Assembly: GCA_964611205.1 (NCBI GenBank)
Contig: CAZSZB010000003.1
Location: 23,764-87,763 of the forward strand
Reading direction: 5' to 3'
Origin: an uncultured Candidatus Saccharibacteria bacterium
Lineage (GTDB): Bacteria; Patescibacteriota; Minisyncoccia; Phycocordibacterales; UBA918
DNA: 64,000 nt
In this document: positions 10,657 to 58,864 of the stretch, one piece after another
How positions within the stretch are numbered: position 1 is the stretch's first letter
How the letters are laid out: each line of letters begins with the position of its first letter
The notes under the pieces: model-generated
Told to the model about the DNA's origin: nothing
Database searches by the model: none
The model's input: only the letters and a program-made list of their open reading frames with translations
Program-made: the position numbers and the translations under genes

Positions 10657-10729
10657 GTTATACACAACTTATACACAGATGACTGGGGTTGCAAAAAAAA
10701 TCGGGCGGTTTCTTTTGGTTTTATCCACA
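10657..10729. promoter_or_regulatory. oriC-type DnaA box cluster upstream of dnaA
   Basis: TTATACACA at 10657-10665 and 10668-10676, and a perfect TTATCCACA at 10721-10729. Confidence 0.6.
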
Positions 10730-26319: not shown

Positions 26320-26393
26320 TCCGCCTATAGCTCAGATGGTAGAGCAGAGGACTTTTAATCCTTGTGTCCCAGGTTCGAGTCCTGGTGGGCGGA
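26320..26393 (+). tRNA. tRNA-Lys (anticodon TTT), no encoded CCA
   Basis: Hand-folded: acceptor UCCGCCU/GGGCGGA, D-arm AGCUCAGAUGGUAGAGC, anticodon loop CUUUUAA, and a GGTTCGAGTCC T-loop. Confidence 0.9.
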
Positions 26394-26522
26394 CAAAATA
26401 AAGGAAAGAAAAGCGAATACTTGGAGTTTTTAGTGACTATTATTTTGCAACCAACAGGACTCGAAAAGGTTGCCTACGATTTTGACGAAGGAAAAATCGT
26501 GACAACCTGTACAGAATATGTA

Positions 26523-26544
26523 ATATTCGAGTCCTGGTGGGCGG
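26523..26544 (+). repeat. 21-bp exact duplicate of the tRNA-Lys 3' end (ttcgagtcctggtgggcggac)
   Basis: Identical to 26372-26393, 130 bp downstream of the gene. This is an att-site-like footprint. Confidence 0.7.
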
Positions 26545-26763
26545 ACTCGGGTAAGAAAAAAGAAGATGTTTAAACATCTTCTTTTTTCTTAGTTCCTGAC
26601 TGGTGTCAGGAACGGCTCGAGTCCGAGGCGGAGCGTTGTGAGGTGAGAAAGTACCAAAGTACTTTCGCAAGACTTTTTGTGATTTTTCATATGAAAAATC
26701 CAAAAGGTTTACCGTTCCTGTAAGGAAGGACTCTGTCCCGTCCCGACGAACCGCGAGCCGGGG

Positions 26764-30157: not shown

Positions 30158-30215
30158 TCACGAGTTACTAAGTATATTTGTTGTCTATGACTACAGATCT
30201 ACTAAGTACTCTCGA
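30158..30215. repeat. tRNA-associated MITE-like element copy
   Basis: Bounded by cacgagttactaagta and ctaagtactctcga, the same termini as 63166-63221. Confidence 0.6.
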
Positions 30216-30447
30216 ACTCTACGAGTTCTGTACACCTTGTCACTACTCTTTGCTTCACTCAAAGATAGTAGGCAAGGTTTTACGAAGTGACATTGAGTCA
30301 CTTCTCACCCGCCTCGACCGTTTTCATTTCTAGGAAAAAAGAAATGAAAACAAGTCTGCGGCCAGCACCAAGGTACGCAAGCAAAGCAGTTTGCTTGCTA
30401 TAGGAAAGATAGTCAGTTCTTAAAAACTGACTATCTTTCTTATATCT

Positions 30448-30565: not shown

Positions 30566-30711
30566 GAGCAGCTCTCGCAACAAATTCGACGTCAGAAGAA
30601 TTTGTTCCAGTAGAGCAAGCGCCCCGGAAGATTATATTCGATTGTGTCTTGGAGCAGCTCTCGCAACAAATTCGACGTCAGAAGAATTTGTTCCAGTAGA
30701 GCAAGCGCCCG
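30566..30711. repeat. two tandem copies of a 59-bp unit (period 87 bp), each containing the hairpin aacaaattc-N10-gaatttgtt
   Basis: Identical copies at 30566-30624 and 30653-30711. The unit end agtagagcaagcgccc resembles the tRNA-Arg 5' flank. Confidence 0.7.
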
Positions 30712-30772
30712 TTTATTGCTATTGCTACAGATACTAAAGTAATCGTCACTTGGTATCGAGCAACATAATATA

Positions 30773-31243
30773 TTAAAAACCGAAAAAATCCAGCAACTGT
30801 TGGAAGAATGGTATTTCCAAATATTCTTCTGGTAAGCGACTGGCTATAATGTCTTCTATTTCATCTACATACTCTTCTGGCAACGGCATAACAATCAAGG
30901 GCATAAACATCTTTTCGGAACGGGCTAATAGTTGGGGTCCCCAAGGATTTTCTTCATCTATATAAAAACACTCCAATGTACTATAAGGATATAATTTATC
31001 TTCGATACGCAGACCGCGTTGACTAACAGCAAAGGGAACAGTGTTGGGTTCACGAACTGCTATGATACCCATCACAATACCTGATATCAGTATGACAAAA
31101 GCAAAAAGAGAGTTACCTAACAGCAAGGCAGCTCCAGTAGCGGAGACGGTAAGAATACCCAAAGCCCAGAGCCAGTTTGCTTCCTGGGGTCCATGACTGT
31201 GTTCCAGAGCCTTCCAGGTTACTTCTTTAATGTAGTCAGACAT
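30773..31243 (-). CDS. hypothetical membrane protein
   Basis: 156-aa ORF with a central hydrophobic stretch. Confidence 0.4.
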   Translation of the reverse strand: MSDYIKEVTWKALEHSHGPQEANWLWALGILTVSATGAALLLGNSLFAFVILISGIVMGIIAVREPNTVPFAVSQRGLRIEDKLYPYSTLECFYIDEENPWGPQLLARSEKMFMPLIVMPLPEEYVDEIEDIIASRLPEEYLEIPFFQQLLDFFGF

Positions 31244-31397
31244 GGCTAAATTGTAACATGCTGTAAAAAACTTTTTACAAGCTAATTTGCTAGAAACTAC
31301 TTCTTTATTTTACGATATGCTATATTTTGTTAAATAATATGACAGAATAAGCGTTTTCTGGAAAGAAAACGCTTATTCGTTCGTCATTAGTTAATCT

Positions 31398-33191
31398 ATG
31401 TTTTTTAAACCAGCAAAAACAGAACAAACCAAAAAAGTAAATCAAGGAAACGGTACCCCAAGAACACCGTTGCGGTTTTTATGGTATACGGTAAAACCGT
31501 ATCGCTACTGGTTATTGTTGGGGGTGAGTTTGAATATCATCAATCAACTTCTTAGCGTCTATGTCGCTATATTTATTGGTAATTTAGCTGATGCGGCGGC
31601 CAAAGTGTCTGAGCCAGAGCAGTTTTTAAGTTGGGTCATCGGCTTTTTGGTATTGATTGTTTCTACCTTCATTTTTTATCGAGTGGGAGGTTTCATTACT
31701 ATACATTTTGTTCTAAAACAAAATCAGTACGCTTTTGAAACAGTCAAAGGCTATCTCTTAAAACACAGTCATACATATTATATAGATCGCTTTGCAGGAA
31801 CTTTAACTGGCAAGATATTTAATGCTGGTGACCGCAGTAGTGAGATACTGCTGATGATTAATTATGGTTTTGTTCGTTTGGTAGTTAGTTTGACAGCGAC
31901 CGGTGTTGTTATCGGCTTTTTTAGTATCAAGCTTACCCTCATATACGCCGCAATCGTTTTCTTAACTATCTTAGTGAATATTTATTTGGTCAAACGCCGT
32001 CGTCCATTAGTTGTTGATTATGCTAAAACCACTTCACGCTACCGGGGGCAATTAACAGATGTTGTCTCAAACATCCAGGCGGTGCGACAATTTTCCGCGA
32101 TAAATAGTGAATTTGATTATCTTAAACAAACTCTCAGTGAAAGAGTTTTAAAAGATCGCAAGCAATGGACAGTCGGCGAGTGGAATCATGTGGTCAACAA
32201 TATCCTCACTACGCTCCTGATGGTTCTGATGATTGGTGGAACTTATATCTTGCTCATTAACGGCTCAGTAACTTTAGGTGCGATGGTTTCGGTTATGATA
32301 CTTATGTATCGAGTATCAGGAATTATGGTTGATCTTGGTGACTGGATGAATCGAATTATAAGGATATACGGCGATGTGGAAGAAGGATTAGACGATATTT
32401 TGGTAGACCATGAGATAGTCGATGAGCCTGGGGCGGGCTTGCTTAAGGCAGAAGAGGGTAGGATTCAGTTCAATAATGTAACTTTCCAATATGGTGAGAA
32501 TTGCATTTTTAAAGATTTTAATTTAACCATCGAACCAGGACAGAGAGTTGGTTTGGTTGGTTCCTCAGGGGCTGGAAAAACTACCCTGATTTCTTTGCTG
32601 TTAAGACAACATGATATTCAAGAAGGAGAAATTAATATCGACGGACAAAATATTTCTTCAGTTACTCAGGATTCTCTACGGGAAAATATTGCGATAGTCC
32701 CGCAAGAACCCATTCTGTTTCATCGTTCGATAAGGGAAAATATTATTTATGGCAAACCAAACGCTACCGAGGAAGAAATTATTGCGGTAGCAAAAAAAGC
32801 CCAAGCCCATGATTTTATTATGCAATTATCAGAAGGCTACGATACATTGGTTGGAGAAAGAGGAGTGAAGCTTTCAGGTGGACAAAAACAACGGGTCGCA
32901 ATTGCCAGAGCTATGCTTAAAGAAGCGCCGATATTAGTATTGGATGAAGCCACTTCTGCGCTAGATAGTGAAAGCGAGGTAGCTATACAAAAGGCCCTGA
33001 GTGAATTAATGAAAGGGAAGACCGTGTTAGCGATTGCTCACCGGCTATCGACTTTGCGGGAGATGGATAGAATTCTGGTACTAGAAAGTGGAACCATTAT
33101 TGAAGATGGTACCCATAGAGAATTAGCTAAAGGTGGTTGTACCTACCAAAAACTTTGGGAGCACCAAGCGGGCGGATTTTTGCAGGAGTAG
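31398..33191 (+). CDS. ABC exporter, fused permease + ATPase (MsbA-like)
   Basis: Six-TM N-terminal half, Walker A GSSGAGKTT, signature LSGGQKQRVAIARA, and Walker B ILVLDEATSALD. Confidence 0.9.
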   Translation: MFFKPAKTEQTKKVNQGNGTPRTPLRFLWYTVKPYRYWLLLGVSLNIINQLLSVYVAIFIGNLADAAAKVSEPEQFLSWVIGFLVLIVSTFIFYRVGGFITIHFVLKQNQYAFETVKGYLLKHSHTYYIDRFAGTLTGKIFNAGDRSSEILLMINYGFVRLVVSLTATGVVIGFFSIKLTLIYAAIVFLTILVNIYLVKRRRPLVVDYAKTTSRYRGQLTDVVSNIQAVRQFSAINSEFDYLKQTLSERVLKDRKQWTVGEWNHVVNNILTTLLMVLMIGGTYILLINGSVTLGAMVSVMILMYRVSGIMVDLGDWMNRIIRIYGDVEEGLDDILVDHEIVDEPGAGLLKAEEGRIQFNNVTFQYGENCIFKDFNLTIEPGQRVGLVGSSGAGKTTLISLLLRQHDIQEGEINIDGQNISSVTQDSLRENIAIVPQEPILFHRSIRENIIYGKPNATEEEIIAVAKKAQAHDFIMQLSEGYDTLVGERGVKLSGGQKQRVAIARAMLKEAPILVLDEATSALDSESEVAIQKALSELMKGKTVLAIAHRLSTLREMDRILVLESGTIIEDGTHRELAKGGCTYQKLWEHQAGGFLQE

Positions 33192-33259
33192 TTTTTGGCT
33201 CTAGACTTTGTGAAAGAAATTAGATAGTTTAAGTTGAACAAAAAAGAAGGAGTTCTTCA

Positions 33260-33532
33260 ATGGAAGCAGAAAAAGTCCAAGAGGTCATCCAGCTTTATCG
33301 TCGCGAGTTTGAGGCGACGGGTGTTGGTAAGACCAAATATCCTCACGGAAAGTCGTTGGATCAGTCCAGTCACAGCCTCGAGCATTGCCACGCTATGCTC
33401 GATGATATGGATGAATTCCTGAAGGAAGGTAGGACTGACAAAGTCTTCCGCTGGCTCGGTTTCATACAGGGAGTTCTTTGGGCCCAAGGCCTTTACTCAC
33501 TGACCGAATTGACCGGTCACAATCGCCCTTAG
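33260..33532 (+). CDS. hypothetical protein encoded in GC-rich (about 52%) DNA
   Basis: 90-aa ORF starting where GC content jumps relative to the ABC transporter gene. A hairpin terminator lies at about 33568-33600. Confidence 0.35.
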   Translation: MEAEKVQEVIQLYRREFEATGVGKTKYPHGKSLDQSSHSLEHCHAMLDDMDEFLKEGRTDKVFRWLGFIQGVLWAQGLYSLTELTGHNRP

Positions 33533-33777
33533 TTGGGAGGAAAAGACAGAAAGACAGTAAGATTTAAGGTCGTCCGATTTATCGGACGGCCTTTCTGGTT
33601 GGAGTTAATGGAAAGGGATTGCTTTGCTTTTTCTAATTCTTTACAGGAACTGTGTAGGTTAACTAATATTTTTCCTTCGTCAAAATATTAGTTAACCTCT
33701 CGAGAAAATGTGTAAACATTTTCTCTCCCCAACCCTCCCATGCGCGCACTGAACCATCTGAAAACAGATAGTCTTCC

Positions 33778-33807
33778 AAAAAAAACCACCAGTATGCACA
33801 CTGGTGG
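33778..33807 (-). terminator. rho-independent terminator on minus strand (ccaccagtgtgcatactggtgg + T8)
   Basis: Perfect 8-bp GC-rich stem followed by eight T on the minus strand. Confidence 0.55.
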
Positions 33808-33932
33808 CATTTTCGGTTCGTGTGTTGGCTTGCGGACAAGCCTTCAGGGACGTGTCCGCTCTGCGAGCGGAAAGGAACGGTGCTGGTGCATCAGCGTGTT
33901 GGACATCCATGTCCTGAACCGACGGGCTGGGC

Positions 33933-34052
33933 TCAGACGATGGTGTCGATGGCGGCGCAGTGGCTCGGGTAGCCAGCGGCTGGGTTGTTCGCGCCATTGG
34001 TCATCAGCTCGACGGGACCGGCACGAACGGTGGTGAGTGCGAAGCGTTTCAT
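33933..34052 (-). CDS. candidate 39-aa micro-ORF in about 60% GC DNA with consensus Shine-Dalgarno
   Basis: AAGGAG sits 6 nt upstream of the ATG. Hand translation gives MKRFALTTVRAGPVELMTNGANNPAAGYPSHCAAIDTIV, followed about 120 nt downstream by the strong terminator. Confidence 0.25.
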   Translation of the reverse strand: MKRFALTTVRAGPVELMTNGANNPAAGYPSHCAAIDTIV

Positions 34053-34177
34053 CGCAGTCTCCTTGTCCGAGTGTGAAGGAAGTCACACGCTCATTGGCCA
34101 GATAATACTGACCTCTATAGCTAAAAGTAGTAGATTTTGTTTTTTTTCAAGTGAGAAGTGAAGAGAAAAGTGAAAAT

Positions 34178-34195
34178 TGGCGGAGAGGGATTCTC
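34178..34195. repeat. partial copy of tRNA-Ser 3' end (ttggcggagag..ggattc), candidate attL
   Basis: Matches 46295-46305 exactly (11 nt) plus a further 6 nt after a 4-nt gap. It has the same orientation as the tRNA gene. Confidence 0.35.
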
Positions 34196-34465
34196 TCGTT
34201 ACACGAGCAGTATACCTTTTGCATCAGATTACTTCGCAAGCTCATAATCTGACGCAAAAGCTTTCGAATCCCCACAGAAGTGACACTGAGTCACTTCTTC
34301 TCTCTCCACCAACAAAATAGCACCCCAAAAAGGGTGCTATTTTGTACTCGCGGGCTACGTGGGTTAAGTACCCACACGTTCAAGCCTTGTAAGGGTATTC
34401 TAGCGCATTTTGGGTATGCGAATCTAGGTACGTGGGTCGGGGTCTAAGAGTAGACAAAGTAGACA

Positions 34466-34912
34466 CTAATAGCGACTTCGGCGGTATCGCTTCTTTCGCC
34501 TGCCTCCAGGCTCTTTAAGGTAAACCCAGAAGCCAGTGAGATTAAGGAGTATCCCAGAGCAAAGGAAGATAAGTAAGTGAAGTGCAAGTGGCCACTTCAA
34601 GCAATAGACAAAGTTGCCGAAGATCGTGGTGAAGATGAGGAATGTCAGGGTCTGCAATCCAAGGTATGTCCCGCTTCCGACAAAGCGGTTGAATGTCGGC
34701 GAGAAGCCGTTGTCGGAATTGTAATGGGCGGTGCCGTTGCGGGTGTAAATCTCCCAAGCTACCCACCCGATCATGGCAAGAATGATCCAGACGAAATGCC
34801 ACGGCCACAGATACTTGATCGCAGTCCAGAGAAAATCGGAAAGCGAAGAAACCGCCATATCCGATACGGTTGAGCAGATTTCTCCAAATGAAAATATTGT
34901 TTGTGGATCCAT
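34466..34912 (-). CDS. hypothetical polytopic membrane protein with Arg/Lys-rich C-terminus
   Basis: 148-aa ORF, hydrophobic, in the island. Confidence 0.35.
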   Translation of the reverse strand: MDPQTIFSFGEICSTVSDMAVSSLSDFLWTAIKYLWPWHFVWIILAMIGWVAWEIYTRNGTAHYNSDNGFSPTFNRFVGSGTYLGLQTLTFLIFTTIFGNFVYCLKWPLALHLLIFLCSGILLNLTGFWVYLKEPGGRRKKRYRRSRY

Positions 34913-35308
34913 GTCTTTGACACCTCGGTTCTGGGAAATGCCCCGACCTCGGCGTTTCTTATCTTCTCGCTAATCGTCAATTTACACTATTGACACTGTG
35001 GATAAATACTTGTTTGATTTTTAATACGGAAGTGCATATAATTCACTCAGTTCTTCACAGATGAAACTACCTTCTCCCTCGGGAGAGGCAGTCCGATCGC
35101 ATAGGTCATCGACCAAAAAAAATATGCGTGAGGGTTGTCGAATGGAGTGCGTATTGAACGAATCGTTGTCGGGTCCATTGTGGCAAAAAGACAGCTGTTC
35201 GAGATCGCAGTCGAAGGCACACCAAGCATCACGCTTGCTGTTTCTTTGAGTGCGATTTTTTGTTTGTAGAAAATCAAAACTCTCCGTGCAGAACTAATTA
35301 TCAATTAT

Positions 35309-36652
35309 TTGAAATTAGTTATGACCAATCACAACCACACATTAGAAATCCAATACGTCGCAGTCGGTGACCTCAAGGAGAACGAATACAACCCGAAGAA
35401 GTTCTCAGCGGAGGCTTTGGACGGCATCAGAGAAAGCGTTACCCGTTTCGGGTTCGCAGATCCATTGGTAGTTAACAGCAACGAAGAGCGGAAAAACATT
35501 CTCATCGGAGGACATGCACGCCTCAAGATCGCCAAGGAGCTCGGCTTCGAGACCGTACCAGTCGTCTTCGTTAATCTGAGTGAAGACAAGGAAAAGGAAC
35601 TCAACCTCCGTCTCCACAGGAACCAAGGAGCGTTCGACTTGGAACTGCTCGCAAAGTTCGACGAGACGCTTCTTGCGGACATCGGATTCAACTCGGAGGA
35701 TCTCGATTCGATCTTCAACATGGACCCGACACCCGAGCACTTCGACCTCAAGAAGGAACTTGAGAAGTTGAATATCAAGGACGTGAAGGTAAAGCACGGA
35801 GACCGATACGAGATCGACGGCTCGATCCTCATGTGCGGAGACAGCACCATCGAGGAAGACATGCTCAAGCTCATGCAGGGAGCAAAAGCCGACATGGTGA
35901 TGACCGATCCTCCTTACATTCTCGACTACCTCAAGGGTAAGACGAAGAACAAGGACGGGATCACGGAAGGCTTCGGTGCGAAGAAGAACCGCGTCTATCT
36001 CGGCACCACTTCCTTGCCCGACAACTTCACCGACCTCTGGATGAACGGCGTGTCCAAGGTTCAGAAGGAGGACTTCTCGATCGTCATCTTCGAGCATCCG
36101 AAGAATCTCCGCACCATCTGGAACGCACTTGAGAAGCACTGGAAGTATCGCAACACCATCACATGGCACGTGCCAAACCGCATGCAGGGATTCGCTGGGA
36201 AGTACAAGCTTTTCAACAAGCAGGACATCGCACTTGTAGGAAGCACCGACCGAGTGATCGTTAATCTCGAGCCAGAGGATGAGCTGTTCCAGAACGAGTA
36301 CGAGAATGCCATTTATGCCACGAGCGGAAGACCGCATTGGGAAAGCTACGGCAAAGGAAAGAAGAACTGCCCGACGGACTTCATCGAGCACATCGCCGCA
36401 GACAAGAAGTCCTCTGGTCAGGACATCATATTTGGCACGAAGCCGATAGAGCTTCTCATCCCGTACATCAAGGTACTCACGAAGCGTGACGACTTGGTGC
36501 TCGAGCCGTTCGGAGGATCGGGATCAACGCTCATCGCATCGCTGAAGATCGGACGCAAGTGCCGCATCATGGAGAAGCAGCCGATCTATGCGGAGGTCAT
36601 TATCAAACGCTGGGAGAAAGCGACCGGCAAGAAGGCGGTGAAGATAGACTAG
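35309..36652 (+). CDS. ParB-like nuclease domain fused to N4/N6 DNA methyltransferase (beta-class)
   Basis: N-terminal ParB/Srx motif (ILIGGHARLKIAKELG). Motif IV VMTDPPY comes before motif I LEPFGGSGST. Confidence 0.8.
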   Translation: MKLVMTNHNHTLEIQYVAVGDLKENEYNPKKFSAEALDGIRESVTRFGFADPLVVNSNEERKNILIGGHARLKIAKELGFETVPVVFVNLSEDKEKELNLRLHRNQGAFDLELLAKFDETLLADIGFNSEDLDSIFNMDPTPEHFDLKKELEKLNIKDVKVKHGDRYEIDGSILMCGDSTIEEDMLKLMQGAKADMVMTDPPYILDYLKGKTKNKDGITEGFGAKKNRVYLGTTSLPDNFTDLWMNGVSKVQKEDFSIVIFEHPKNLRTIWNALEKHWKYRNTITWHVPNRMQGFAGKYKLFNKQDIALVGSTDRVIVNLEPEDELFQNEYENAIYATSGRPHWESYGKGKKNCPTDFIEHIAADKKSSGQDIIFGTKPIELLIPYIKVLTKRDDLVLEPFGGSGSTLIASLKIGRKCRIMEKQPIYAEVIIKRWEKATGKKAVKID

Positions 36653-36653
36653 T

Positions 36654-37229
36654 ATGGCAAAGCAGAAAGAAGCGGTCGCTACCGCACAGCTGAAGCACAA
36701 GCTCGTACAGCACCTACGGGACATCCCGATCCCGACATATGCGTGCCAGCGGGTCGGCGTTCCCAAAGCCACCTACTACAAGTGGCGGAAGACAGACCAG
36801 ATATTCCGTGAAGCGAGCGACGAGGCGATCATCACGGGAAAGCTCACACTTAATGATGTTGCTAAGTCCCAGCTCGTGAAGCTCATCAAGGAGGGAGACT
36901 ATCGCTCGATCAACTTCTGGCTGAAGCACAACGACGAGGACTTCGGATCGAAGCTCAAGCTTGAGATCGAGGACAGGACGAGAAAGTACGACCCCGAAGA
37001 ACTCAAACTCATGGCGACAGCGATGCATAATGCAGGATTGGTCGGCGTTACACTCGCTCACCAAAAGATGGCGAAGGTGTTTCAGGGATTGCAGGAAAAG
37101 GAAGAAGAGCGAGCCAACGAGAAGAACGAATACGACGAGGATGAAGAACCTGTCGTTCAGGAAAAACAGAAGCGAAAAGGCGGAGTGAAGATTGCAGAGT
37201 TTATGAAGAAGAGGAAGTCTGAGGAATAA
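36654..37229 (+). CDS. HTH DNA-binding protein, phage terminase small subunit-like
   Basis: N-terminal HTH (ACQRVGVPKATYYKWRK), and charged helices downstream. It is translationally coupled to the ParB-MTase. Confidence 0.4.
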   Translation: MAKQKEAVATAQLKHKLVQHLRDIPIPTYACQRVGVPKATYYKWRKTDQIFREASDEAIITGKLTLNDVAKSQLVKLIKEGDYRSINFWLKHNDEDFGSKLKLEIEDRTRKYDPEELKLMATAMHNAGLVGVTLAHQKMAKVFQGLQEKEEERANEKNEYDEDEEPVVQEKQKRKGGVKIAEFMKKRKSEE

Positions 37230-37659
37230 GTCGCCTCAGCACCTCTCCCGTGAGGATGCGGTGCTTCTTGAAGGCGTTGCACCGCTTGCATGCAAGCGTC
37301 AGGTTTCTCGGGTGGTTGGAGCCGAAGCTTTGTGGTTCGACTTTCACACCCGACACGCCTTTCATCTTACGAAGCTCCTTGTTCAGGACATTCGATGACA
37401 GCGGAATGATGTGGTCGGGTTCGAAGATTCCATCGTTGGTGCACTCAGGGTGAATGCTTAACTGGCATTCGCCTTTGTGCTTTTCGATGAGTTCATGCAA
37501 TACCTTCTTGCTGGTCTTGTCGAATTGCCACCGCTTGATTGCAGGATGCTGAAAATCAAAGAGATCGGAATATTCTTTGTTGAAATACTCTAGGTCTCCG
37601 TCTGCAAGCAGGTGTACGAAAAAATCCTGATCCTCAGGATTTTCAAACTGCATTCGCAA
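37201..37659 (-). CDS. HNH endonuclease
   Basis: A CxxC ... H-N-H core (EPDHIIPLS..NHPRNLTLACKRCNAFKKHR). Confidence 0.8.
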   Translation of the reverse strand: MRMQFENPEDQDFFVHLLADGDLEYFNKEYSDLFDFQHPAIKRWQFDKTSKKVLHELIEKHKGECQLSIHPECTNDGIFEPDHIIPLSSNVLNKELRKMKGVSGVKVEPQSFGSNHPRNLTLACKRCNAFKKHRILTGEVLRRLIPQTSSSS

Positions 37660-38002
37660 TGAAGATGAAAAGGACTATGGCGGTAAAGACAACTAAACCG
37701 ATGAGTACCTTTTCGCTTCGAGTATAGATTCGAGCAGGTTCTTTTTCAGCCAGAGCCTGCTCGAGTGTTTTGCCTTGGTCAGCCAAGAGCTTCTGTCCGA
37801 TTGGAGAATCCAACGGAATCAGATTGGTCGCACCACAGGCGGAGCACTTCTTGTACCTTGATGACGATCGCCACACCGAATATATGAGACCCGGAATGAT
37901 GAAGAAGCACCAGAGGATTATTTCTATTAAAAGGTTTCCCTTAACGGCAGTTTTGGAACTGCCAATATGCCCACAAGCGGAGCATATGAGTTTCTTAGAC
38001 AT
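37643..38002 (-). CDS. zinc-ribbon (2x CxxC) membrane protein
   Basis: CSACGH..CSACG pairs flank a TM helix, with a second TM at the C-terminus. It overlaps the HNH start by 17 nt. Confidence 0.4.
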   Translation of the reverse strand: MSKKLICSACGHIGSSKTAVKGNLLIEIILWCFFIIPGLIYSVWRSSSRYKKCSACGATNLIPLDSPIGQKLLADQGKTLEQALAEKEPARIYTRSEKVLIGLVVFTAIVLFIFIANAV

Positions 38003-38227
38003 GTTTTTTGGACGGTTTTCATGACGCTAATAATTCTGGTAGGTAGCAAAAATCTCCTAACCAGGGCTGATATATCCCGTGAGATATACCCATACCCCTT
38101 TCGGGATATGACCGTCCAAAGTGGCCTCTGATTAGGAGGTTTTTACTTTGGACGGAATTTGCGACCATATCCTAGAAAACCAAGGGTTCTTTAGGGGTTA
38201 GGTCGACTGTATTCAGTTGTATGTACA

Positions 38228-38250
38228 TGATACCAAAATTGATGGTATCA
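38228..38250. promoter_or_regulatory. palindrome tgatacca-N7-tggtatca upstream of the putative restriction endonuclease gene
   Basis: 8-bp perfect arms, about 80 bp upstream of the 38330 start. Confidence 0.3.
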
Positions 38251-38329
38251 GTCAGTACCTTAGCTTAGTTATTGGGTCTTGCGAAGGGCTTCATAAAGGC
38301 TTGATAAATTGCTAGAATGAGGCGTAACC

Positions 38330-39397
38330 ATGGCAGTATCCGCTCAAAAAGTAAGCAAGTATGTCGATTCCATTTCCAAGAGCGGTCTTAGCATCTATGA
38401 CCCTATTGAAGTCGGAGATCCAAATCTTTGGATACCTTCAGGAGAACTGGAGGTTATTTTGAATGAGGCTTTAAAAGGTCTCTCCCTTACAGGTCTGCCC
38501 CTAAGAACACGATCAAAAGTTGTGAAGCAGAAAGTATGCTCTGCTTTGGGCTATCCTGTGCCAAATAGTTTTGAGAAAACACAGCCACGTTTCCCAGGAC
38601 AGTGCTTCGATACTTATATTCAGAAATCAAACAACTTGCAGATTTGGAACGAAGAACTTTCATCAACCCGACGATACGTAACGATCAAAGTAACCGACGA
38701 AGACGTGGTTGAAGTTGTACGTGTCGTAACTGGAGACACTCTTGCTGTACTTGATACAACAGGCACCCTCACTCAGAAATACCAAGCTCGACTTACAGTC
38801 GGTGATAATGTGTCAGAACTTGTATCTGCGGAGGATACTGACCGAATCGTTGCGATAATCGAATCTGCAAACGGTGATCAAAAGCTTGGTGATCCCACAG
38901 ATCATGTATCAGCTGAAAACATTCTTCCTATCGAAGATGTATTTGAAAAACTTAAGACAATAATCGGAAAGTCTTTTGCTGACGCTGGTTCTGATCAAGA
39001 AAGGAATCGAGGTGGACTACTCCACAAACTAGTGTGTCATGCATTGGGTTATGAAATACATCGAGACAACGGACAGTTTCCTGATGTACCGAATCAATTA
39101 CTTGAAGTAAAGCTTCAAACTTCTCCAACTATTGATCTTGGCTTGGTTACACCCGACAGTAAGGACGCATTGGATACGCCTAAAATCAACGGGAAGCAGA
39201 TACGTCACTGCGACGTTCGCTATGCAATCTTTTATGCCAACATCGAGAACGGACAAATTAATGTCACCAACCTTTTTCTATCAACAGGAAAAGATTTCTT
39301 TAGTCGTTTCCCTCGCTTTGAAGGAAAGGTACTTAATAAGAAAATTCAGATACCCCTTCCGTCAGATTTTTTCACCTATAAGCCGAAGGCTGAATAG
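38330..39397 (+). CDS. putative type II restriction endonuclease (PD-(D/E)xK-like)
   Basis: Convergent and overlapping by 22 bp with the N6-adenine MTase gene. It has a candidate catalytic HRDNGQFPDVPNQLLEVKLQT segment (D..EVK). Confidence 0.45.
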   Translation: MAVSAQKVSKYVDSISKSGLSIYDPIEVGDPNLWIPSGELEVILNEALKGLSLTGLPLRTRSKVVKQKVCSALGYPVPNSFEKTQPRFPGQCFDTYIQKSNNLQIWNEELSSTRRYVTIKVTDEDVVEVVRVVTGDTLAVLDTTGTLTQKYQARLTVGDNVSELVSAEDTDRIVAIIESANGDQKLGDPTDHVSAENILPIEDVFEKLKTIIGKSFADAGSDQERNRGGLLHKLVCHALGYEIHRDNGQFPDVPNQLLEVKLQTSPTIDLGLVTPDSKDALDTPKINGKQIRHCDVRYAIFYANIENGQINVTNLFLSTGKDFFSRFPRFEGKVLNKKIQIPLPSDFFTYKPKAE

Positions 39398-41070
39398 ACA
39401 AGTTTGTTTAGCTTCTCCTCCTGAGAATCAAATTCAGCATCTACAGGCAACTCGTAGATTGATTTAGTTAAGTTGATGATCTCTTTTGCTATCTTTGATT
39501 TTGGATCAGGCAATGGAAACTTCTCAACGTATTGAGTAATAAAGCGTCTTCGTCCCGAGTAGAGTTTATTGTTGAAACTGTGGTCGTAGAACTCCTCGAC
39601 AAACTTTGAGTTTGCAATTGCCAAAGCGAGCCACAGCAATTCGGAATTATCTTCTTCTGAAGTTAACCAGTAGCAGTCTCCATTCACCACACCGCCTGTT
39701 TGATCCATCCAAAAGATTGGTTGTTCAGAAATATCTCTGAAGACTAACTTGGGCTTCTCCCAAGTCTTTGGATTATGAGGAACCCAGATCTCGTACCAGT
39801 TACGTCCTGAATCAATCACGTAACTTCTCGATGAGAGCTGATCTTTGTGTTCTTCAAGATACCTTTTTACGTTGGGATACTGATCAAGATCAATGGGCTT
39901 CTTTTTGTTGCCGATTTCCTCATGTGTGTAAACAACATGCTTCTTTGCTGAATCTGTTTTGTATCTTCTTGCGACGTGATGAGTAATCAGTGGCTTTAGA
40001 GTTTCAGGTAGGTTTCCATTAAATTTAGAAATGTCGGATACGATAAAAACATTGTCAGCAGTCGTTTTGATACCAACTTTTACCTTGCCAATATCCCCAA
40101 ATAAAAGTTGAGTCTTTTCTTTAACTTTCTTCAACCACAGGTCTGCTTTGTCATGAGCAAGCCTCCATGTGTCGCCGATCTTATTGCCAATATCAAGCTT
40201 GCCGTGCAGTACTTTAAAATGTTCCGATTCCTCTCCTTCGAGTGATTGAAAGACTTGTTGTGGATCAATCTTTGTATTCTTTCCCGAAAGATATATTGAT
40301 GTGAATCTAGGGTCAGCATCCTTTGATGTCTCTTTTTGCAAAAGCAGAACAGCTGGAAGCACTGCCGCTTCAAACAAGCGTGTATCTCCTAAATCCCATA
40401 CATGTAGAACACTAAAATCATTTAGGAGATTCTTTCGAACAGCTTCGCCTGATTTAGTGGTAAGAAAGCGATTGGAAACAATGATACCTACTACACCTTC
40501 TGGCTTAAGAAGTTTCTCAATTCCTTTTAGGAAAGCGTGATACAGATCAACTCGACCTGAGAGATTAAAATCTTCCGCAAGCTTTTGAGCCTTTTCAGCA
40601 CCCATGACTTGAGTTCTGACATAAGGCGGATTCGCAATAACAAGATCAAAGAGTGGAACATCTGTTTTTGAAAACAAAGAACCTCCATAAGTTTCAGAGA
40701 CCCATTCTAAGAAATCCTGAGTTTTAATATCAGCCTTAACTTCAGGGAAATCCTTCTTGATTAGATCCAGAGAAGCATCAACTGCATCTTGATTAATATC
40801 GAAACCGAATACTTCGATTTTATTGAATCCGCGCGAGTAGGCTATCTGTATAAGATTACGCAGAAGCTCCCCGTCACCAACAGCAGGATCAATTACTTTT
40901 AGTGTTTTGGTTTTCTTTAAATTCTTTTTCTCAACTTGATCAAAGATTTGAGATGCCACAAAGCCAGCCAAAGAAGTTGGGGTGTAATGAGCCCCTGTAT
41001 TCTTTCTTAATCCAGCATCGAGTTGTGCATCTAAAGTTGGCATTTGTAAACCTATTTTAACATTTTTCAA
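39376..41070 (-). CDS. N6-adenine DNA methyltransferase, gamma-class (Eco57I/TaqI-like) with C-terminal target-recognition half
   Basis: A TGAHYTP segment, motif I VIDPAVGDGELL and motif IV VIANPPY. 564 aa. Confidence 0.85.
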   Translation of the reverse strand: MKNVKIGLQMPTLDAQLDAGLRKNTGAHYTPTSLAGFVASQIFDQVEKKNLKKTKTLKVIDPAVGDGELLRNLIQIAYSRGFNKIEVFGFDINQDAVDASLDLIKKDFPEVKADIKTQDFLEWVSETYGGSLFSKTDVPLFDLVIANPPYVRTQVMGAEKAQKLAEDFNLSGRVDLYHAFLKGIEKLLKPEGVVGIIVSNRFLTTKSGEAVRKNLLNDFSVLHVWDLGDTRLFEAAVLPAVLLLQKETSKDADPRFTSIYLSGKNTKIDPQQVFQSLEGEESEHFKVLHGKLDIGNKIGDTWRLAHDKADLWLKKVKEKTQLLFGDIGKVKVGIKTTADNVFIVSDISKFNGNLPETLKPLITHHVARRYKTDSAKKHVVYTHEEIGNKKKPIDLDQYPNVKRYLEEHKDQLSSRSYVIDSGRNWYEIWVPHNPKTWEKPKLVFRDISEQPIFWMDQTGGVVNGDCYWLTSEEDNSELLWLALAIANSKFVEEFYDHSFNNKLYSGRRRFITQYVEKFPLPDPKSKIAKEIINLTKSIYELPVDAEFDSQEEKLNKLVYSAFGL

Positions 41071-41111
41071 GATCGCTTGATACCTTAGCTTAGACCTGAA
41101 AAATTGTGTAA

Positions 41112-41507
41112 TTGGTTACCAGATTGACCCTTTGCAGACCTCTGGACTTATTTGCAGTTCAGCGTCATTCCTTGGGTGTGGATGAAGATATCGAGGCAAT
41201 TATTGATGCGAGTAAGCATTTCAAATACCACGAGGAGCGTGGGATGACCCTCTTTAATCGCGTCTCTCATCTACCCGAATCAAAGCGACACATGAAGATG
41301 GCAATTAAGGAACGCATACTCTTCTTGGCAGGTGCTTATATATCTCTTGCGTCATTCATTGATGATGACCTCGTGGATTTCTTAGAGAACGCTGACAATG
41401 AATCAGATAAAGAAAAAATAAAGAGAATTTATAGCGATGTAATCAAACAGATGGATACTCTACGTAAGGAGATGGAAGAATTCAAAATCATAGACTTACC
41501 AACCTAA
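41112..41507 (+). CDS. hypothetical protein upstream of the recombinase (true start probably internal)
   Basis: ORF with a charged helical C-terminus. Confidence 0.3.
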   Translation: MVTRLTLCRPLDLFAVQRHSLGVDEDIEAIIDASKHFKYHEERGMTLFNRVSHLPESKRHMKMAIKERILFLAGAYISLASFIDDDLVDFLENADNESDKEKIKRIYSDVIKQMDTLRKEMEEFKIIDLPT

Positions 41508-41541
41508 GGGTACTTAGGACGCTCTGGACTCTTCAAAGGGA

Positions 41542-42882
41542 TTGCGTCATTCATTGGGTTGTATGAATAACGCAATATCAATGCCGTACGGGACAACGGT
41601 ACAAGAGCAAGTCCCTGTAAAGGTGAAGTACTGCCTTTATGCGAGAAAGTCGACAGAATCGGAGGAGCGACAAGTGCTGTCCATAGATAGCCAGATCAAG
41701 GAGATGCTCCAGCTCGCGGATCGAGAATGTTTAGAGATTGTGGAGATGAAGCGAGAGTCACACTCTGCAAAAGAGACAGGTCAGCGACCAGTCTTCAATG
41801 AAATAATCGAGGAGATACGAGAAGGAAAATACAACGGTATCCTGACATGGGCACCAGACCGTATTTCAAGAAACGCAGGTGACCTTGGAAGGATTGTAGA
41901 CCTGATGGATTCGGGCAAGCTTGAGGAAATACGAACTTTTGGTCAGAAGTTCGGCAACAATCCAAACGAGAAGTTTCTCCTGATGATTCTGGGGTCACAA
42001 GCAAAGCTTGAGAACGACAATCGAGGAATCAACGTGAAGCGAGGTCTGCGAACGAGAGCGGAGATGGGGCTATGGTCAGGCATGCCTCCTCTCGGGTACG
42101 TGACGCAGGGACTAATGGAAAAGAAATGTCAGGTAGCGGTAGATCCGCTACGAGCACCAACAGTGAAGAAGATGTTTGAGAAAGTTGCATACGAACAATG
42201 GTCTGGGCGAAAGGTATACAACTGGCTGAGGTTTGAGCTGAACTTCTACACCAGAGGAAACAAACCACTCACTCTCGGAGGTGTGTATCGCATATTAGAA
42301 AACCCTTTCTACTATGGAGTGTTCGAGAGACCAAAGAAGAGCGGAAACTGGTATCAAGGAAAGCACACGCCACTCATCACGCAGGAACTGTTCGAGAAAG
42401 CAAAGGCACAGCTTAAGCGTGACCAGATAGTGCGAGAGACGAAGGAGTTCGCATTCACTAAGCTCTTCACCTGCGGGTACTGCGGAAGCGGGATATCCGC
42501 CGAAGAGAAATGGAAACAGCTCAAGGATGGCGGCGTGAACAGATACATCTACTACTCCTGTGCCAGATCAAGAGACCGCAACTGCAAGAACATGTACATA
42601 CGAGAAGAAGATTTGATACTCGAACTACTGAAAATACTCGACAAAGTGAACATCAACGAGCTTGGCATGCGAAAGAAACTGGAGGATGAGATTGCGAGGT
42701 TCAATATATTCCAAAGGTCGGTACTCGGCGCCAAAGAAAAGATAAAGACGGATGCAGAGACAGATATCAGGAACTATGCGAAGTACATCCTAAAAGAAGG
42801 GTCTACTACTGAAAAACGAGAGCTATTGGCTAACCTGAGATCACGAATTGAATACAAAGATAAGAACCTAAGGCTCGTCTAG
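41542..42882 (+). CDS. large serine recombinase (resolvase catalytic domain + recombinase domain + zinc ribbon)
   Basis: YARKSTESEERQ catalytic Ser motif, a recombinase domain, and CGYCGS..YYSC zinc-ribbon cysteines. Confidence 0.85.
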   Translation: MRHSLGCMNNAISMPYGTTVQEQVPVKVKYCLYARKSTESEERQVLSIDSQIKEMLQLADRECLEIVEMKRESHSAKETGQRPVFNEIIEEIREGKYNGILTWAPDRISRNAGDLGRIVDLMDSGKLEEIRTFGQKFGNNPNEKFLLMILGSQAKLENDNRGINVKRGLRTRAEMGLWSGMPPLGYVTQGLMEKKCQVAVDPLRAPTVKKMFEKVAYEQWSGRKVYNWLRFELNFYTRGNKPLTLGGVYRILENPFYYGVFERPKKSGNWYQGKHTPLITQELFEKAKAQLKRDQIVRETKEFAFTKLFTCGYCGSGISAEEKWKQLKDGGVNRYIYYSCARSRDRNCKNMYIREEDLILELLKILDKVNINELGMRKKLEDEIARFNIFQRSVLGAKEKIKTDAETDIRNYAKYILKEGSTTEKRELLANLRSRIEYKDKNLRLV

Positions 42883-42962
42883 ACAGAATAGATGGGTTGT
42901 TGCAAAAGTGTTAAAATAGAGGCGTAACATGAAATCCAAATTTCACCTTACGAGAACATTGC

Positions 42963-45900
42963 ATGAGCCCAAATACCGCTCCACAACCAAACACGCTCAT
43001 TCTCCCAATCTTAGAATTGGGGCCTATTAGGCATGATCTCGGACAGATAAGGCATGTTTTGGATCTTGGCGGGAGCAAAGAGATAGTATCAACAGAAGAT
43101 TTCAATACTTCGCCTAGAGTTGTAGAAAAGCTACACGTACTCTCTGACGGACAAAGAGTATTGGTAACAAAGAAAAAGAAACTCCAGCTACCTGTCGATG
43201 TGGACGGAGTGCTTCATCGTAACGAAGAAGGAGAACTAAAGTGGGTTGCTCATAGAAAACTGGAAGCGATAGAACAGGATATTGCTCGAGACGGGATAGA
43301 AAGTGTCGCATCTGAAATAGCTGAAAGCTGGTCTGGGAAATTTAACTTTCGTGCAGAAGAGCGAGATGCTTCAGGAAACATCACTAAGGCAGGACTGAGA
43401 CCTCCACAAATCGGTGGACTTCATGCGATTGGTGCTCACTGGAGTCTCTACCAGCAACCTGCGACGGTTGTAATGCCCACTGGTACAGGAAAGACAGAAA
43501 CGATGTTGGCAACTCTCGTGGCATATTCACCAGGTAGCTTGCTTGTAGTGGTTCCCTCAAAAGTACTTCGGGATCAAACCGCAAGAAAATTTCTAACGTT
43601 AGGATTGCTTCGTTCTCTCGGTAATATTTCTCCAGAAACAAAAAATCCAATTGTTGGAGTAATCAAAAAGAGACCTCAGTCAGAACAAGATCTGGATATT
43701 TTTGATAAATGCAATGTCGTTATTGCAACCATGAGTGCCATGGGTGGCGAAGCATCCGATGACATATCCCTTCCTGTTGCCGACCATGCCAAAACACTGA
43801 TCGTCGACGAAGCACATCACATTGGAGCAAATGGATGGAGTGCTTTTCGAGAAAAATTTAAGGAAAACAAGGTTTTACAATTTACAGCAACCCCCTATCG
43901 AAGAGACGGAAAGCTTGTCGATGGAAAGGTTATTTATGAGTATCCTCTACACTCAGCCCAGAAAGACGGATATTTCAAAAATATCAACTTCGAGCCCGTA
44001 TATGAGATTGATCAAGAAGATGCGGATGAAGCAATAGCCACAAAGGCAGTAGAAGTGCTCAGAAGCGATATTGAGTCTGGAATGGACCATCTCATGATGG
44101 CAAGATGTGTGAGCATTGGTCGGGCAAGGACAATACATGCTATTTACAGCAGGATCGCTCCTGACCTGAACCCTGTTCTAATACATTCAGAGGCTGACGA
44201 AGCCGATGCTTCTATTGAGCTCATAAAATCTCGTGGAAGTCGTATTGCAGTTTGCGTAAATATGCTCGGAGAAGGTTTTGATTTGCCTCAACTTAAAATT
44301 GCAGCTGTCCACGATGCTCATAAAAGCCTTGCTATCCTTTTGCAATTTACGGGTAGATTCACTCGAAGTTCAGGAGAAGCAATTGGTGATGCGACTGTCG
44401 TGGCAAATATCGCAGATCAGGATGTCTCCTCATCGCTTGAACGTCTTTACAGTGAGGATGCGGATTGGAATCAATTGTTAAGTGAATTTAGCTCCGAAGC
44501 AGCAAAAGCCCATTCAGAGCTTATTGCCTTTTTGAATTCATCCGAAAGGCTTGATGACCCAGAAGATGAAGAGAAGATCGAAATATCCCACCATCTATTT
44601 CGCCCTACCTTCAGCACACTAATGTACGAAGCAGATTCTTTCACTCCTAAAAAATTCATCGAAGGAATTCCCAAAGGAACGACTGTGCACAATGTCTGGA
44701 TTCACGAAGAATCCAAAACCCTCTATTTTGTAACAAGACTAGAACCATCCATTCGTTGGACAAGATCACGCAAACTAAAGGATAGGACATGGGATTTGCA
44801 CGTTTTTCATTATGACGAAGCGCGCCACATGTTGTTCGTGTCCTCGAGTGACAAGTCCTCAGCGCATGAAAAAATTGCCAAGGCCATTGGTGCCACACGA
44901 CTCATTTCTGGTGACGTTATTTTCCGAGCACTAGGACGAATCAATAGACTTATCTTTCAGAACGTGGGAGTAACCAAGCATGGCCGTCGAAACCTGAGGT
45001 ATGCAATGTATACAGGTTCTGATGTTGCTACAGCGTTGAGTGTGTCTGAACGAGCTGGTTCAGTTAAATCAAACCTAAGTGGTACTGGTTGGGAAAATGG
45101 TGAACCTGTCACAATCGGATGCTCCTACAAAGGACGTGTGTGGGCTAGAGATCCTGGATCAATACCTGAACTCGTAAAATGGTGTGAAGCTGTTGGCGAT
45201 AAAATTAAAGATGAAGGAATAGACACGGCAGATATTATTGCCAACGTTCTTATCCCCGAAGAAGTAACAGCATTGCCAGATAAACAGGTACTCAGCATTG
45301 AGTGGCCTCTGGAAATTATCAGACAGTCGGAAGAAAGAGTGGTTATCAAGAAAGGAGCTGTTGAGAGATCAATTTCAATGTTTGATCTTCAATTCGTTAA
45401 AACTGATCTGGTAACCAGTCAGGTTGAATTTAATCTTGTCACAGATCCTGAGGAGGTTTGGGCAAAATTAGTTCTGACAGTGGGTGGCGATGACGGATTC
45501 AAAGTCACAAAAAGCACAAGAGAAGCTGTAACAATTCGTGTTGGGAATTTGGAACTTCCAATCGAGGAGTATTTTTCAAATTACCCTCCGATGATTCGCT
45601 TCATAGATATTTCTGAGCTTGACGGCAACTTACTCATTAAGCCGCAAAACACTCAAGACCTTGTGTTTCCTGAAGAAAGTTTTGAGGTCTGGGACTGGGA
45701 AGGAGTCGACATGCAAAAGGAGTCTATTTGGAAAGGTGGTAATGAACGTCAGGACTCAATCCAATGGAAAGCGGCTCAGCAGTTTATTGCTGGAAACTTC
45801 GATGTGGTCTTTGATGATGACAGTGCGGGAGAAGCTGCTGATCTTGTCTGTTTTAAGGAAGAAGATGATCATATACGGTTAGCTTTGGTGCATTGTAAAT

Positions 45901-46256: not shown

Positions 46257-46295
46257 CCCGAGCCCCATTCAAGGGTACTCGGGTCACTCCGATAC

Positions 46296-46385
46296 TTAGT
46301 TCTCTTGGCGGAGAGAGAGGGATTCGAACCCTCGGTACGCGTAAACGTACAACGGTTTTCAAGACCGCCGCCTTCAACCACTCAG
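46296..46385 (-). tRNA. tRNA-Ser (anticodon TGA), long variable arm, CCA encoded
   Basis: Hand-folded: GGAGAGA acceptor, GCTGAGTGGTTGAAGGC D-arm, anticodon loop CUUGAAA, long extra arm, and a GGTTCGAATCC T-loop. Confidence 0.9.
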
Positions 46386-46541
46386 CCATCTCTCCAGATA
46401 TTAAATTGTTGCGGTAAACGATTGTTATCAGTTCAACCAGCTTACCACCGCATGCTTAATCCTTGATAAGGATTGTGACCAGGATATTACCAGAAAAAAA
46501 GCTTTTTTCCAACTATATTTTCATCGTGTTATGATTATCGA

Positions 46542-46925
46542 ATGCGAAAAATGGGTATTGATTTTGGAAGTAAACGGGTTGGTATAGCCTTAAGTGATGA
46601 CCAAGGGCTGATGGCTTTTCCAGAAATGGTAATAGAAAATAATAAAGATTTACTTAAAACCATAGTGAAGCTTATTTCTGATAAGCAAGTAGGGGAAATA
46701 GTAATCGGTCATTCCTTAGGACGTGATGGTAAGCCCAACGAAATTCACGATATGGTTGAGGATTTAATCACCGCTTTAACTCTGGAGACTGGTCTACCGA
46801 CCCATCTGGAACCAGAGCAATACACAACTCAGGAAGCCATTCGTTTTCAAGGTCGCAACCAAGAGACAGATGCTTCGGCGGCCGCTATAATCTTGAATAG
46901 TTACATAACGAGAAATAAAAAATAA
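46542..46925 (+). CDS. ruvX: RuvX/YqgF Holliday-junction-resolvase-like nuclease
   Basis: MGIDFGSKRVGIALSD start and a VIGHSLGRDGKPNE core. Confidence 0.8.
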   Translation: MRKMGIDFGSKRVGIALSDDQGLMAFPEMVIENNKDLLKTIVKLISDKQVGEIVIGHSLGRDGKPNEIHDMVEDLITALTLETGLPTHLEPEQYTTQEAIRFQGRNQETDASAAAIILNSYITRNKK

Positions 46926-46926
46926 T

Positions 46927-58772: not shown

Positions 58773-58864
58773 TCCTGTGTTCCTATGGAGAGTTTGCTAA
58801 TTCTAAATACTTTTTGCTTTTTTGCAAATATTCTAGAATCTAAATATTTGCTATAATTTTTAAT

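Follow-up and report, generated by a model that had tools for sequence, protein, structure and literature searches.

What kind of DNA makes up a patch of about 60% GC in an AT-rich Saccharibacteria genome, and how did it come to lie beside a genomic island? The question was raised by positions 33230-34330 of a 64,000-nt stretch (hereafter the window) of contig CAZSZB010000003.1 from an uncultured Candidatus Saccharibacteria bacterium, for which an original prediction, made from the letters alone, had proposed either DNA derived from a high-GC actinobacterial host or a small-peptide or small RNA (sRNA) locus belonging to the island. The compositional anomaly is genuine: the mean GC of the window is 0.40 and most 1-kb bins outside 33-46 kb lie at 0.36-0.42 (extremes 0.29-0.42), while the patch reaches 0.62 (33800-34099, and equally in each of two 200-nt windows, 33800-33999 and 33900-34099). 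Rather than one locus, the flagged span is a patchwork of four separate and unrelated features: a 90-aa open reading frame (ORF) on the plus strand that is a conserved small gene of bacteria of the Candidate Phyla Radiation (CPR) type (33260-33532); a long hairpin (33656-33698) that is part of a three-hairpin repeat module, here called module D; the GC-rich core proper on the minus strand (about 33727-34160), running from a promoter-like region to a terminator; and a second repeat module, B, with its closing strand (34178-34320), predicted to form a tRNA-like closed fold. The core proves to be a genuine gene, self-contained within about 400 bp and with a heavily folded RNA, and the explanation that we favour, at roughly even probability, is a laterally moving accessory small-protein gene residing at a tRNA-Ser(tga) hotspot. 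The kind of object is already known, i.e. a small accessory gene or dual-function RNA travelling as cargo at a tRNA hotspot. CPR bacteria and Saccharibacteria have tiny genomes whose accessory genes are almost all uncharacterised; a compact, delimited and apparently mobile gene is thus a handle on what these episymbionts do in a strain-specific way, for instance in recognition, immunity or competition, and the locus bears on how DNA accumulates at the tRNA genes of CPR bacteria.

Organisation and conservation of the GC-rich unit

Read on the minus strand, the unit comprises a promoter-like region, a 5' untranslated region (UTR) with a hairpin, a Shine-Dalgarno (SD) site, a 39-codon ORF, a structured 3'UTR and an intrinsic terminator. 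The promoter-like region (34113-34160; CTACTTTTAGCTATAGAGG) contains TTGAAA at 34145-34150 and an A8 tract at 34140-34147. In the 5'UTR (34053-34112) the hairpin GTGTGA-loop-TCACAC (34071-34088) precedes the SD sequence AAGGAG (34059-34064), which is separated by a 6-nt spacer from the ATG (34050-34052) of the ORF (33933-34052; MKRFALTTVRAGPVELMTNGANNPAAGYPSHCAAIDTIV); this start and the 39-aa translation, which includes the segments MKRFALTTVR and AGPVELMTNGANNPAAGYPSHCAAIDTIV, are exactly as originally described. The 3'UTR (33809-33932) carries hairpins at 33901-33914 (GGACA/TGTCC), 33856-33870 (CCGCTC/GAGCGG, already recognised in the original prediction) and 33827-33842 (GGCTTG/CAAGCC), and one further helix spans the stop codon. 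The terminator, likewise foreseen, occupies 33777-33808 and has the canonical form of a G+C-rich stem-loop directly before a U-run: a 10-bp stem with five G-C pairs and a 4-nt loop (33785-33808) followed by T8 (33777-33784).

When the 39-aa peptide was searched exhaustively with HMMER against 1.84 billion representative proteins, two 40-aa proteins were retrieved, both matching at full length (E values of 3.5e-6 and 2.2e-5), and a profile search of a 5.8-billion protein set added a third 40-aa relative. They are encoded on contigs L013, L014 and, with a TARA sample among them, L015-L017, so that the comparison set consists of four independent sequences, the window and three variants. All three variants have 40-codon ORFs with start and stop as in the window, and the similarity reaches beyond the ORF, starting some 10 nt ahead of a TTGCAA/TTGAAA box and continuing to the terminator, across a 3'UTR of 110-160 nt. 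Identity is distributed in a sharply uneven manner, with 85-95% in the flanks of the variable middle; by segment it is 83-92% in promoter and 5'UTR together (85-92% in the promoter-like region, with a 5'UTR almost invariant across the four variants), 76-94% in codons 1-21, 28-69% in a variable stretch of 36-39 nt that is almost unalignable, 86-100% in the last seven codons plus stop, and 53-89% in the 3'UTR. The ORF is hence conserved in its codons 1-21 and its last seven, which encode a C-terminus of the form xAIDTxV, with 11-12 hypervariable codons between them. The unit keeps about 60% GC whatever the GC of its contig (40, 49, 53 and 57%). As it is kept in unrelated contigs, the GC-rich patch is more than a chance spike in composition.

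The A-tract of the promoter-like region differs among strains. The A8 tract at 34140-34147 is shorter by one base in each of three independent strain contigs (L002-L004), the other variants have A8-A10, and the whole set can be described as A7-A10 after the TTGCAA/TTGAAA box; judged from these lengths, the tract may be a phase-variable promoter spacer. A TTGCAAAAAA-type box, resembling the promoter-like region of the unit, was also noticed elsewhere in the window (8 matches against 2.9 expected): it stands at 58816-58827 upstream of a tRNA-Leu gene, with a TAGAAT -10 element 16 nt further on, at 55445-55456 upstream of tRNA-Val and at 10689-10700 upstream of an ORF. Probably it represents a promoter type native to this genome.

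Relatives and origin of the unit

The genes that flank the unit are all different among the variants. In the window it is surrounded by an ABC transporter, the 90-aa gene, repeat modules and the island genes; in L013 a gene for a 153-aa protein lies upstream, a member of a family found on contigs with pilin genes of type IV secretion systems; in L015 the upstream gene encodes an HD phosphohydrolase with distant phage matches only (Rhizobium, Brevundimonas, Rhodococcus and Xanthomonas phages); and in L014 a trypsin-like protease follows the unit. Presence is also variable between close relatives: in L020 a gene 84% identical to that upstream in L013 is followed by the same terminator and lacks the unit, which is missing as well from the rest of the longer relatives L018-L021 fetched by means of the 153-aa gene. 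The near identity of the unit's flanking segments in CPR-type genomes of different GC points to lateral movement. The window and L013 have in common about 65 nt past the terminator (local alignment score of 46 against a null maximum of 20), including a segment at 33727-33776 on the minus strand with a hairpin showing compensatory changes and then AGTGCGCGCAYGGGAGGGT, an indication that slightly more than the transcript was transferred.

Where did such a unit come from? A GC of 62% and a codon usage rich in G+C at third positions (GC3) are foreign to a window of 40% GC, and both would be understandable if the patch had been captured from a high-GC actinobacterial host. Nonetheless, we regard this origin as extremely improbable. 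All relatives lie on CPR-like or unassigned contigs of 49-57% GC, whose placeable neighbour genes were judged to be of CPR/Saccharibacteria-like families, and the only matches among the 1.84 billion proteins were the two 40-aa peptides, neither of them actinobacterial. Two patterns, one for the degenerate N-terminus of the ORF and one for the 5'UTR, both of which matched the window and the fetched variants, gave no match in six scans of 185,579 GTDB species genomes, JGI metagenome contigs and IMG/VR, where exact matching was needed and distant relatives could be missed. The unit and its peptide were likewise without match in phage and plasmid collections (blastn and tblastn; 50,697 phage records). 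The host-capture story is thus unsupported and the patch is freed from it.

The peptide has no match in Pfam, PHROGs, NCBIfam, PADLOC or a PDB sequence search, and looking up its exact 39-aa sequence revealed that the identical Logan contigs had no gene called. No Rfam 15 family, including tmRNA, 6S RNA and the riboswitches, reached its gathering threshold in 33100-34700 (best E value 0.12 or worse, far below threshold), ARAGORN found no tmRNA and a literature search returned nothing relevant to the GC-rich unit. With four variants among roughly 15 billion proteins, the family is both undescribed and rare. Two outcomes that the original prediction had named as fatal to its own proposal, alignment to a known non-coding RNA or to a fragment of a larger gene, did not materialise in Rfam 15 or in the 1.84-billion-protein search. 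The latter found no larger protein with the same N-terminus, which argues strongly against a pseudogene fragment.

Coding potential and RNA structure

Is the conserved object a gene for a peptide, an RNA or both? The RNA of the unit is, by all structural predictions, clearly structured. Transcribed from 34110 to 33775 it folds better than 100 of 100 shuffled sequences (z = -4.1), and the RNAalifold consensus contains 14 pairs changed on both sides, as compared with 6.4 +/- 1.8 in column shuffles (0/500) and 0-5 in slid controls. These compensatory changes are located in the terminator, two 3'UTR hairpins and the helix across the stop codon. Within the 3'UTR they fall in helices 8, 10 and 11, two of the hairpins being missing in variant L014, and the stem of the terminator (helix 12) takes the forms CCACCAGTG, CCACTAGCG, CCACCTGTG and CCGCCTGTG in the different variants. 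The 5'UTR contributes helices 2 and 3, of which helix 3, predicted to cover the SD sequence and the start codon, is fully conserved.

On this structured RNA lies an ORF that behaves as a coding sequence in several respects. SD, ATG and TGA are invariant in the four variants and no other frame has a common start and stop; the sole indel within the ORF is of 3 nt and in frame, as opposed to indels of 1-5 nt and one large deletion in the 3'UTR. GC by codon position is 0.57/0.55/0.78, approximately so in all four variants, where C occupies the third position of 55-64% of codons versus 26-31% at positions 1 and 2. This periodicity of three is present throughout the ORF, including its hypervariable part, in which the sequences are effectively independent of one another (GC3 38/47, positions 1 and 2 together 55/94; Fisher p = 0.009), and is absent from both UTRs. 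In addition, gene callers predicted the ORF in three lineages. Because of the invariant SD, start and stop, the single 3-nt indel, the third-position C-richness with its persistence in the variable middle and the gene-caller predictions, we favour translation and read the unit as a small-protein gene on a highly structured mRNA, with moderate confidence that it is translated at all. The original suggestion of a small-peptide or sRNA locus holds up in this form, given conservation from promoter to terminator, an ORF that keeps frame, start and stop, and helices that covary.

Several points weigh against the reading as a mobile small-protein gene. With only four independent sequences all statistics are weak; the conservation of promoter and 5'UTR equals or exceeds that of the ORF; substitutions are even over the three codon positions and mostly non-synonymous, without the classical signal of purifying selection, and a structured non-coding RNA would give the same even pattern. 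An AlphaFold prediction made from the alignment of all four sequences shows no fold (pLDDT 49), a -10 hexamer at fixed spacing could not be named for the unit, no partner gene common to all contexts was found, and the scar evidence for an older integration, described below, is of borderline significance. The main rival proposes a purely non-coding structured sRNA, whose ORF would be incidental and whose variable middle would be a variable hairpin or loop. UTRs conserved to the same degree as the ORF ends, substitutions without concentration at third codon positions and compensatory changes in several helices, including the one across the stop codon and helix 7 in the variable middle (4/5 pairs), would all fit, and structured RNAs typically stand out as GC-rich in an AT-rich genome. 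However, period-3 C-richness confined to the ORF and persisting in its diverged middle is not what such an RNA would be expected to show, and neither are an invariant SD at 6-nt spacing, an invariant ATG and TGA and an only indel in frame; helix 7 depends on an uncertain alignment of four sequences, and the RNA belongs to no Rfam family. We therefore consider a purely non-coding RNA possible but rather doubtful.

Dual-function sRNAs, such as SR1/SR1P of Bacillus subtilis, with its 39-aa peptide, and SgrS/SgrT, join both aspects. The unit resembles them in a predicted transcript some hundreds of nucleotides long, which has a promoter of its own and ends at an intrinsic terminator, in its RNA helices and in its ORF of about 40 codons led by an SD site; it differs in the lack of sequence or Rfam similarity and of a known target for base pairing, the hypervariable middle of the ORF, the GC richness and the apparent lateral mobility.

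From these features we infer transcription, translation, a role for the peptide and a mode of movement as follows. The conserved promoter-like region, for which the TTGCAAAAAA-like box before tRNA-Leu with its good -10 element offers a parallel, would drive an mRNA of about 330 nt ending at the intrinsic terminator; the one-base difference in the A-tract between strains could tune its expression, and the helix over SD and start codon together with the 5' hairpin would limit translation. The product would be a soluble cytoplasmic peptide of 39-40 residues whose conserved ends, a 21-residue N-terminus and a 7-residue C-terminus, hold a hypervariable loop of 11-12 residues, and the 3'UTR hairpins could stabilise the RNA or serve as its RNA moiety. 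A cis-acting leader-peptide attenuator would likewise show a short ORF ahead of alternative hairpins and a terminator, and in L014 a codirectional gene does follow; but in the window the unit is followed by a repeat module, beyond which lies a convergent gene, each variant has downstream neighbours of its own and the ORF has no runs of a regulatory codon, so that an attenuator or, in view of the missing larger homologue, a degraded fragment of a larger gene seems scarcely credible.

The hypervariable segment and its possible functions

Near-identical flanks around a scrambled core are, by analogy, what would be expected of a peptide that determines specificity and is subject to diversifying selection or to cassette replacement, and the possible roles that the mosaic evokes are cores of ribosomally synthesised and post-translationally modified peptides (RiPPs) or recognition and immunity peptides. 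RiPP precursors such as cyanobactin PatE and prochlorosin ProcA combine a conserved leader and follower with a hypervariable core. The unit has the same sharp mosaic at both DNA and protein level, with near-identical flanks and a scrambled core of 11-12 residues. Unlike these precursors, it has no maturation enzymes nearby, its short leader matches no known family and its Cys is not invariant. It is tempting to speculate on a RiPP-type precursor, with leader, hypervariable core and follower, matured by enzymes encoded elsewhere and perhaps exported by the adjacent ABC transporter, since the conserved leader and follower with a variable core satisfy the generic description, the ABC exporter lies 750 bp from the unit and a trypsin-like protease follows it in L014. 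Yet no maturation enzyme or C39-peptidase domain adjoins any variant, either in the window or on the variant contigs of 1-1.4 kb, the neighbours differ in each context, the peptide matches no precursor model of NCBIfam or Pfam, as the original prediction had proposed to search, the acid of a lasso ring is missing in three of the four variants and the only Cys is replaced by Val in P0029. A RiPP-type precursor is thus improbable. For the lasso type in particular, doubted from the start, the T18-x-G20 motif (Thr at -2) is present in 4/4 variants, and the ring Asp/Glu at core positions 7-9 only in P0029 (D at 8), being absent from the window peptide, P0027 and P0028; lasso B (protease/RiPP recognition element) and C (cyclase) genes were not found adjoining the unit, and this candidate was rejected.

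A silenced structured mRNA for a toxic peptide, stabilising a mobile element in the manner of type I toxin-antitoxin modules, would account for the highly structured mRNA, for an SD and start inside the conserved helix 3 and for a stand-alone small ORF on mobile DNA, and a weak promoter-like site on the opposite strand (33640-33669) could give an RNA overlapping the 3' end. Against it, the longest hydrophobic run of the peptide, FALTTV, has six residues and is below transmembrane length, no conserved antisense unit was identified, and a hypervariable middle is atypical of such toxins, which leaves this reading very improbable; a membrane toxin is ruled out because the peptide has no hydrophobic segment. 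Two further candidates were tried and rejected. The variable segment has no complementary site within the 64-kb window beyond what shuffled sequences give, as a guide RNA with targets there would require. No second copy of any part of the unit exists in the window and no reverse transcriptase occurs among the neighbouring ORFs examined, which did not include every ORF of the window, as would be expected for the target of a diversity-generating retroelement.

A more far-reaching and rather unlikely proposal is that the unit, perhaps with the abutting tRNA-like module with which it is associated in two independent lineages, represents a new class of CPR mobile-element cassette, a peptide-encoding structured RNA with a swappable 36-nt specificity segment that would act either as an RNA guide or as the core of a recognition peptide or natural product. 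In such a cassette the length of the promoter A-tract might switch expression.

The tRNA-Ser slot and the 12-kb island

Does the unit belong to the island next to it, as had been suggested? The region is covered by identical or 99.6%-identical Logan contigs, one of which (L002) runs from 30679 to 34353 and then continues straight at 46308, the 3' end of the tRNA-Ser(tga) gene (46306-46395, minus strand). The interval 34354-46307 is hence a 12-kb insertion missing in the L002 strain, which keeps the unit at 99.6% identity. Therefore, the unit lies outside the island and is not its cargo, and that part of the original prediction fails.

The island itself (34354-46307; about 45-55% GC) has the tRNA-Ser(tga) 3' end as its integration site. 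Among its products are a large serine recombinase (41542-42882), a fusion of ParB with an N6/N4 methyltransferase, another methyltransferase of the Eco57I/TaqI type, a helicase of 1097 aa, and an HNH and a helix-turn-helix protein. The overlap at its junctions is of only 4 nt (GCGG), and the tRNA-Ser gene has an encoded CCA end with the island and none without it. A perfect 14-bp hairpin (34312-34345; ACAAAATAGCACCC / GGGTGCTATTTTGT) stands just before the junction 34353/34354. Inside the island an LOOT RNA (RF03000) was detected at 38069-38204 on the minus strand (73.4 bits versus a threshold of 46.4). Antisense ORFs of 188 and 328 aa (35329-36391, minus strand) overlap the ParB-methyltransferase gene and look spurious, as is typical of a GC-richer segment.

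The other border of the slot is set by the 90-aa gene (33260-33532, plus strand). The original prediction had correctly noticed this ORF and had placed it upstream as part of the GC-rich sequence; it is instead on the plus strand, converging on the unit and outside it, and its GC is only about 50%. It is an ordinary conserved small gene with an SD site of its own (AAGGAG, 33247-33252) and a terminator-like hairpin that closes it (33566-33593, plus strand; a self-inverted match), and it has 26 homologues of up to 67% identity, one named Candidatus Sungbacteria, as well as a match to phrog_7775 (E value of 1.4e-10). In L005, L007 and L010, from different CPR-type genomes, the 90-aa homologue is followed by a convergent tRNA-Ser gene on the minus strand, an arrangement read as the older one. 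The order in L007 is 90-aa gene, tRNA-Ser, RuvX and tRNA-binding protein, the last two as at 46542-47343 of the window, and an unrelated low-GC gene of 165 aa fills the space between the 90-aa homologue and tRNA-Ser. With tRNA-Ser adjoining the 90-aa homologues and a different gene in L007, the interval is therefore a variable slot at a tRNA 3' end, a classic integration hotspot.

Morons, autonomous promoter-gene-terminator units of deviant GC carried as cargo by phages or islands, offer a parallel for the behaviour of the unit, which is equally self-contained, foreign in composition, present or absent between close relatives and located in an integration hotspot. In contrast to morons, no intact phage or element surrounds it, nor does it match the 50,697 phage records or IMG/VR. 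We conclude that the unit is probably not native to this 40% GC genome and would be cargo or a remnant of an older integrated element, lodged between two hairpin modules.

Hairpin modules and tRNA-like sequences

The modules on both sides of the unit belong to a repeat of three hairpins. One is small and has the loop TYACA, a long one has a copy-specific and yet paired stem, and another comprises 8-10 bp. Five copies occur in the window, mostly adjoining tRNA genes: 30207-30318, about 33637-33740 (D), 34195-34320 (B), 55476-55574 (plus strand) and the partial 26459-26525 (minus strand); L014 carries another at 8-186. Every stem shows compensatory changes, no copy has an Rfam match and the conserved pieces are the TYACA loop, CTGTAC and, in three copies, GAAGTGAC..GTCACTTC. 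A strict descriptor scan for the three-hairpin module retrieved copies B and D and one doubtful match in L018 only. Module D consists, on the plus strand, of hp3 (33637-33649, loop TTACA), hp1 (33656-33698) and hp2' (33702-33725); its hp1 is the 'gttaactaatatttt' hairpin of the original prediction, which exists with a perfect stem of 17 bp (33656-33672 / 33682-33698; 9-nt loop) instead of the 15 bp assigned to it. Module B, also on the plus strand, is made up of hp3 (34195-34207), hp1 (about 34211-34261), hp2 (34277-34298) and the tail TCTCTCTCCACCA, and a strain polymorphism at 34223 (A to G) repairs a mismatch in its hp1.

In two of the copies the predicted fold is closed and tRNA-like, with an outer stem that imitates the 3' terminus of the tRNA next to it. 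For module B the closing stem takes as its 3' strand a 15-mer at 34178-34192 (minus strand; AATCCCTCTCCGCCA), and together they are predicted to form a closed tRNA-like multi-helix fold (z = -6.6); the promoter of the unit begins 17 nt after this tRNA-Ser-like strand (...CTCTCCGCCA). In L014 a homologous module of the same architecture, also ending in CCA, lies just upstream of the unit. Its helices are kept by compensation, GGAGAG/CTCTCC becoming GGGATA/TATCCC and GGGGATTC/GAATCCC becoming GGGGAATC/GATTCCCC, with GAAGTGAC changed to AAGGTGC in hairpin 2.

The 15-mer equals the 3' end of tRNA-Ser except for a 4-nt deletion, a borderline likeness since 5 of 100 shuffles matched at two mismatches or fewer, and is a possible scar of an old attachment site; a second tRNA-Ser-like candidate at 33598-33623 is below significance. 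At tRNA-Lys the picture is clearer: perfect 21-nt direct repeats of the tRNA 3' end (26374-26394 and 26526-26546) enclose a 131-bp insert in which a module copy is accompanied by part of the tRNA-Lys T arm in inverted orientation, so that 26374-26546 looks like a miniature integrated element. The tRNA-Ser region may be a stack of inserts, which from the tRNA outwards would be the 12-kb island, a module of 160 bp (34194-34353) and some 550 bp (33624-34177) with module D and the unit. CIME-type (cis-mobilisable) remnants and the tandem accretion of integrative elements at tRNA 3' ends are comparable. The likeness would lie in inserts stacked at the tRNA-Ser 3' end with tRNA-3'-like repeats between them and in the clear parallel at tRNA-Lys. 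The repeats at tRNA-Ser differ in being short or degenerate, and the sole recombinase is a large serine recombinase, an enzyme that makes no long duplications.

Enrichment of the motif ACTAAGTAYTC near tRNA genes was not beyond chance. Next to tRNA-Arg(gcg), a 59-nt perfect direct repeat (30566-30624 / 30652-30710) is spaced 86 nt apart, and the Logan contigs break there.

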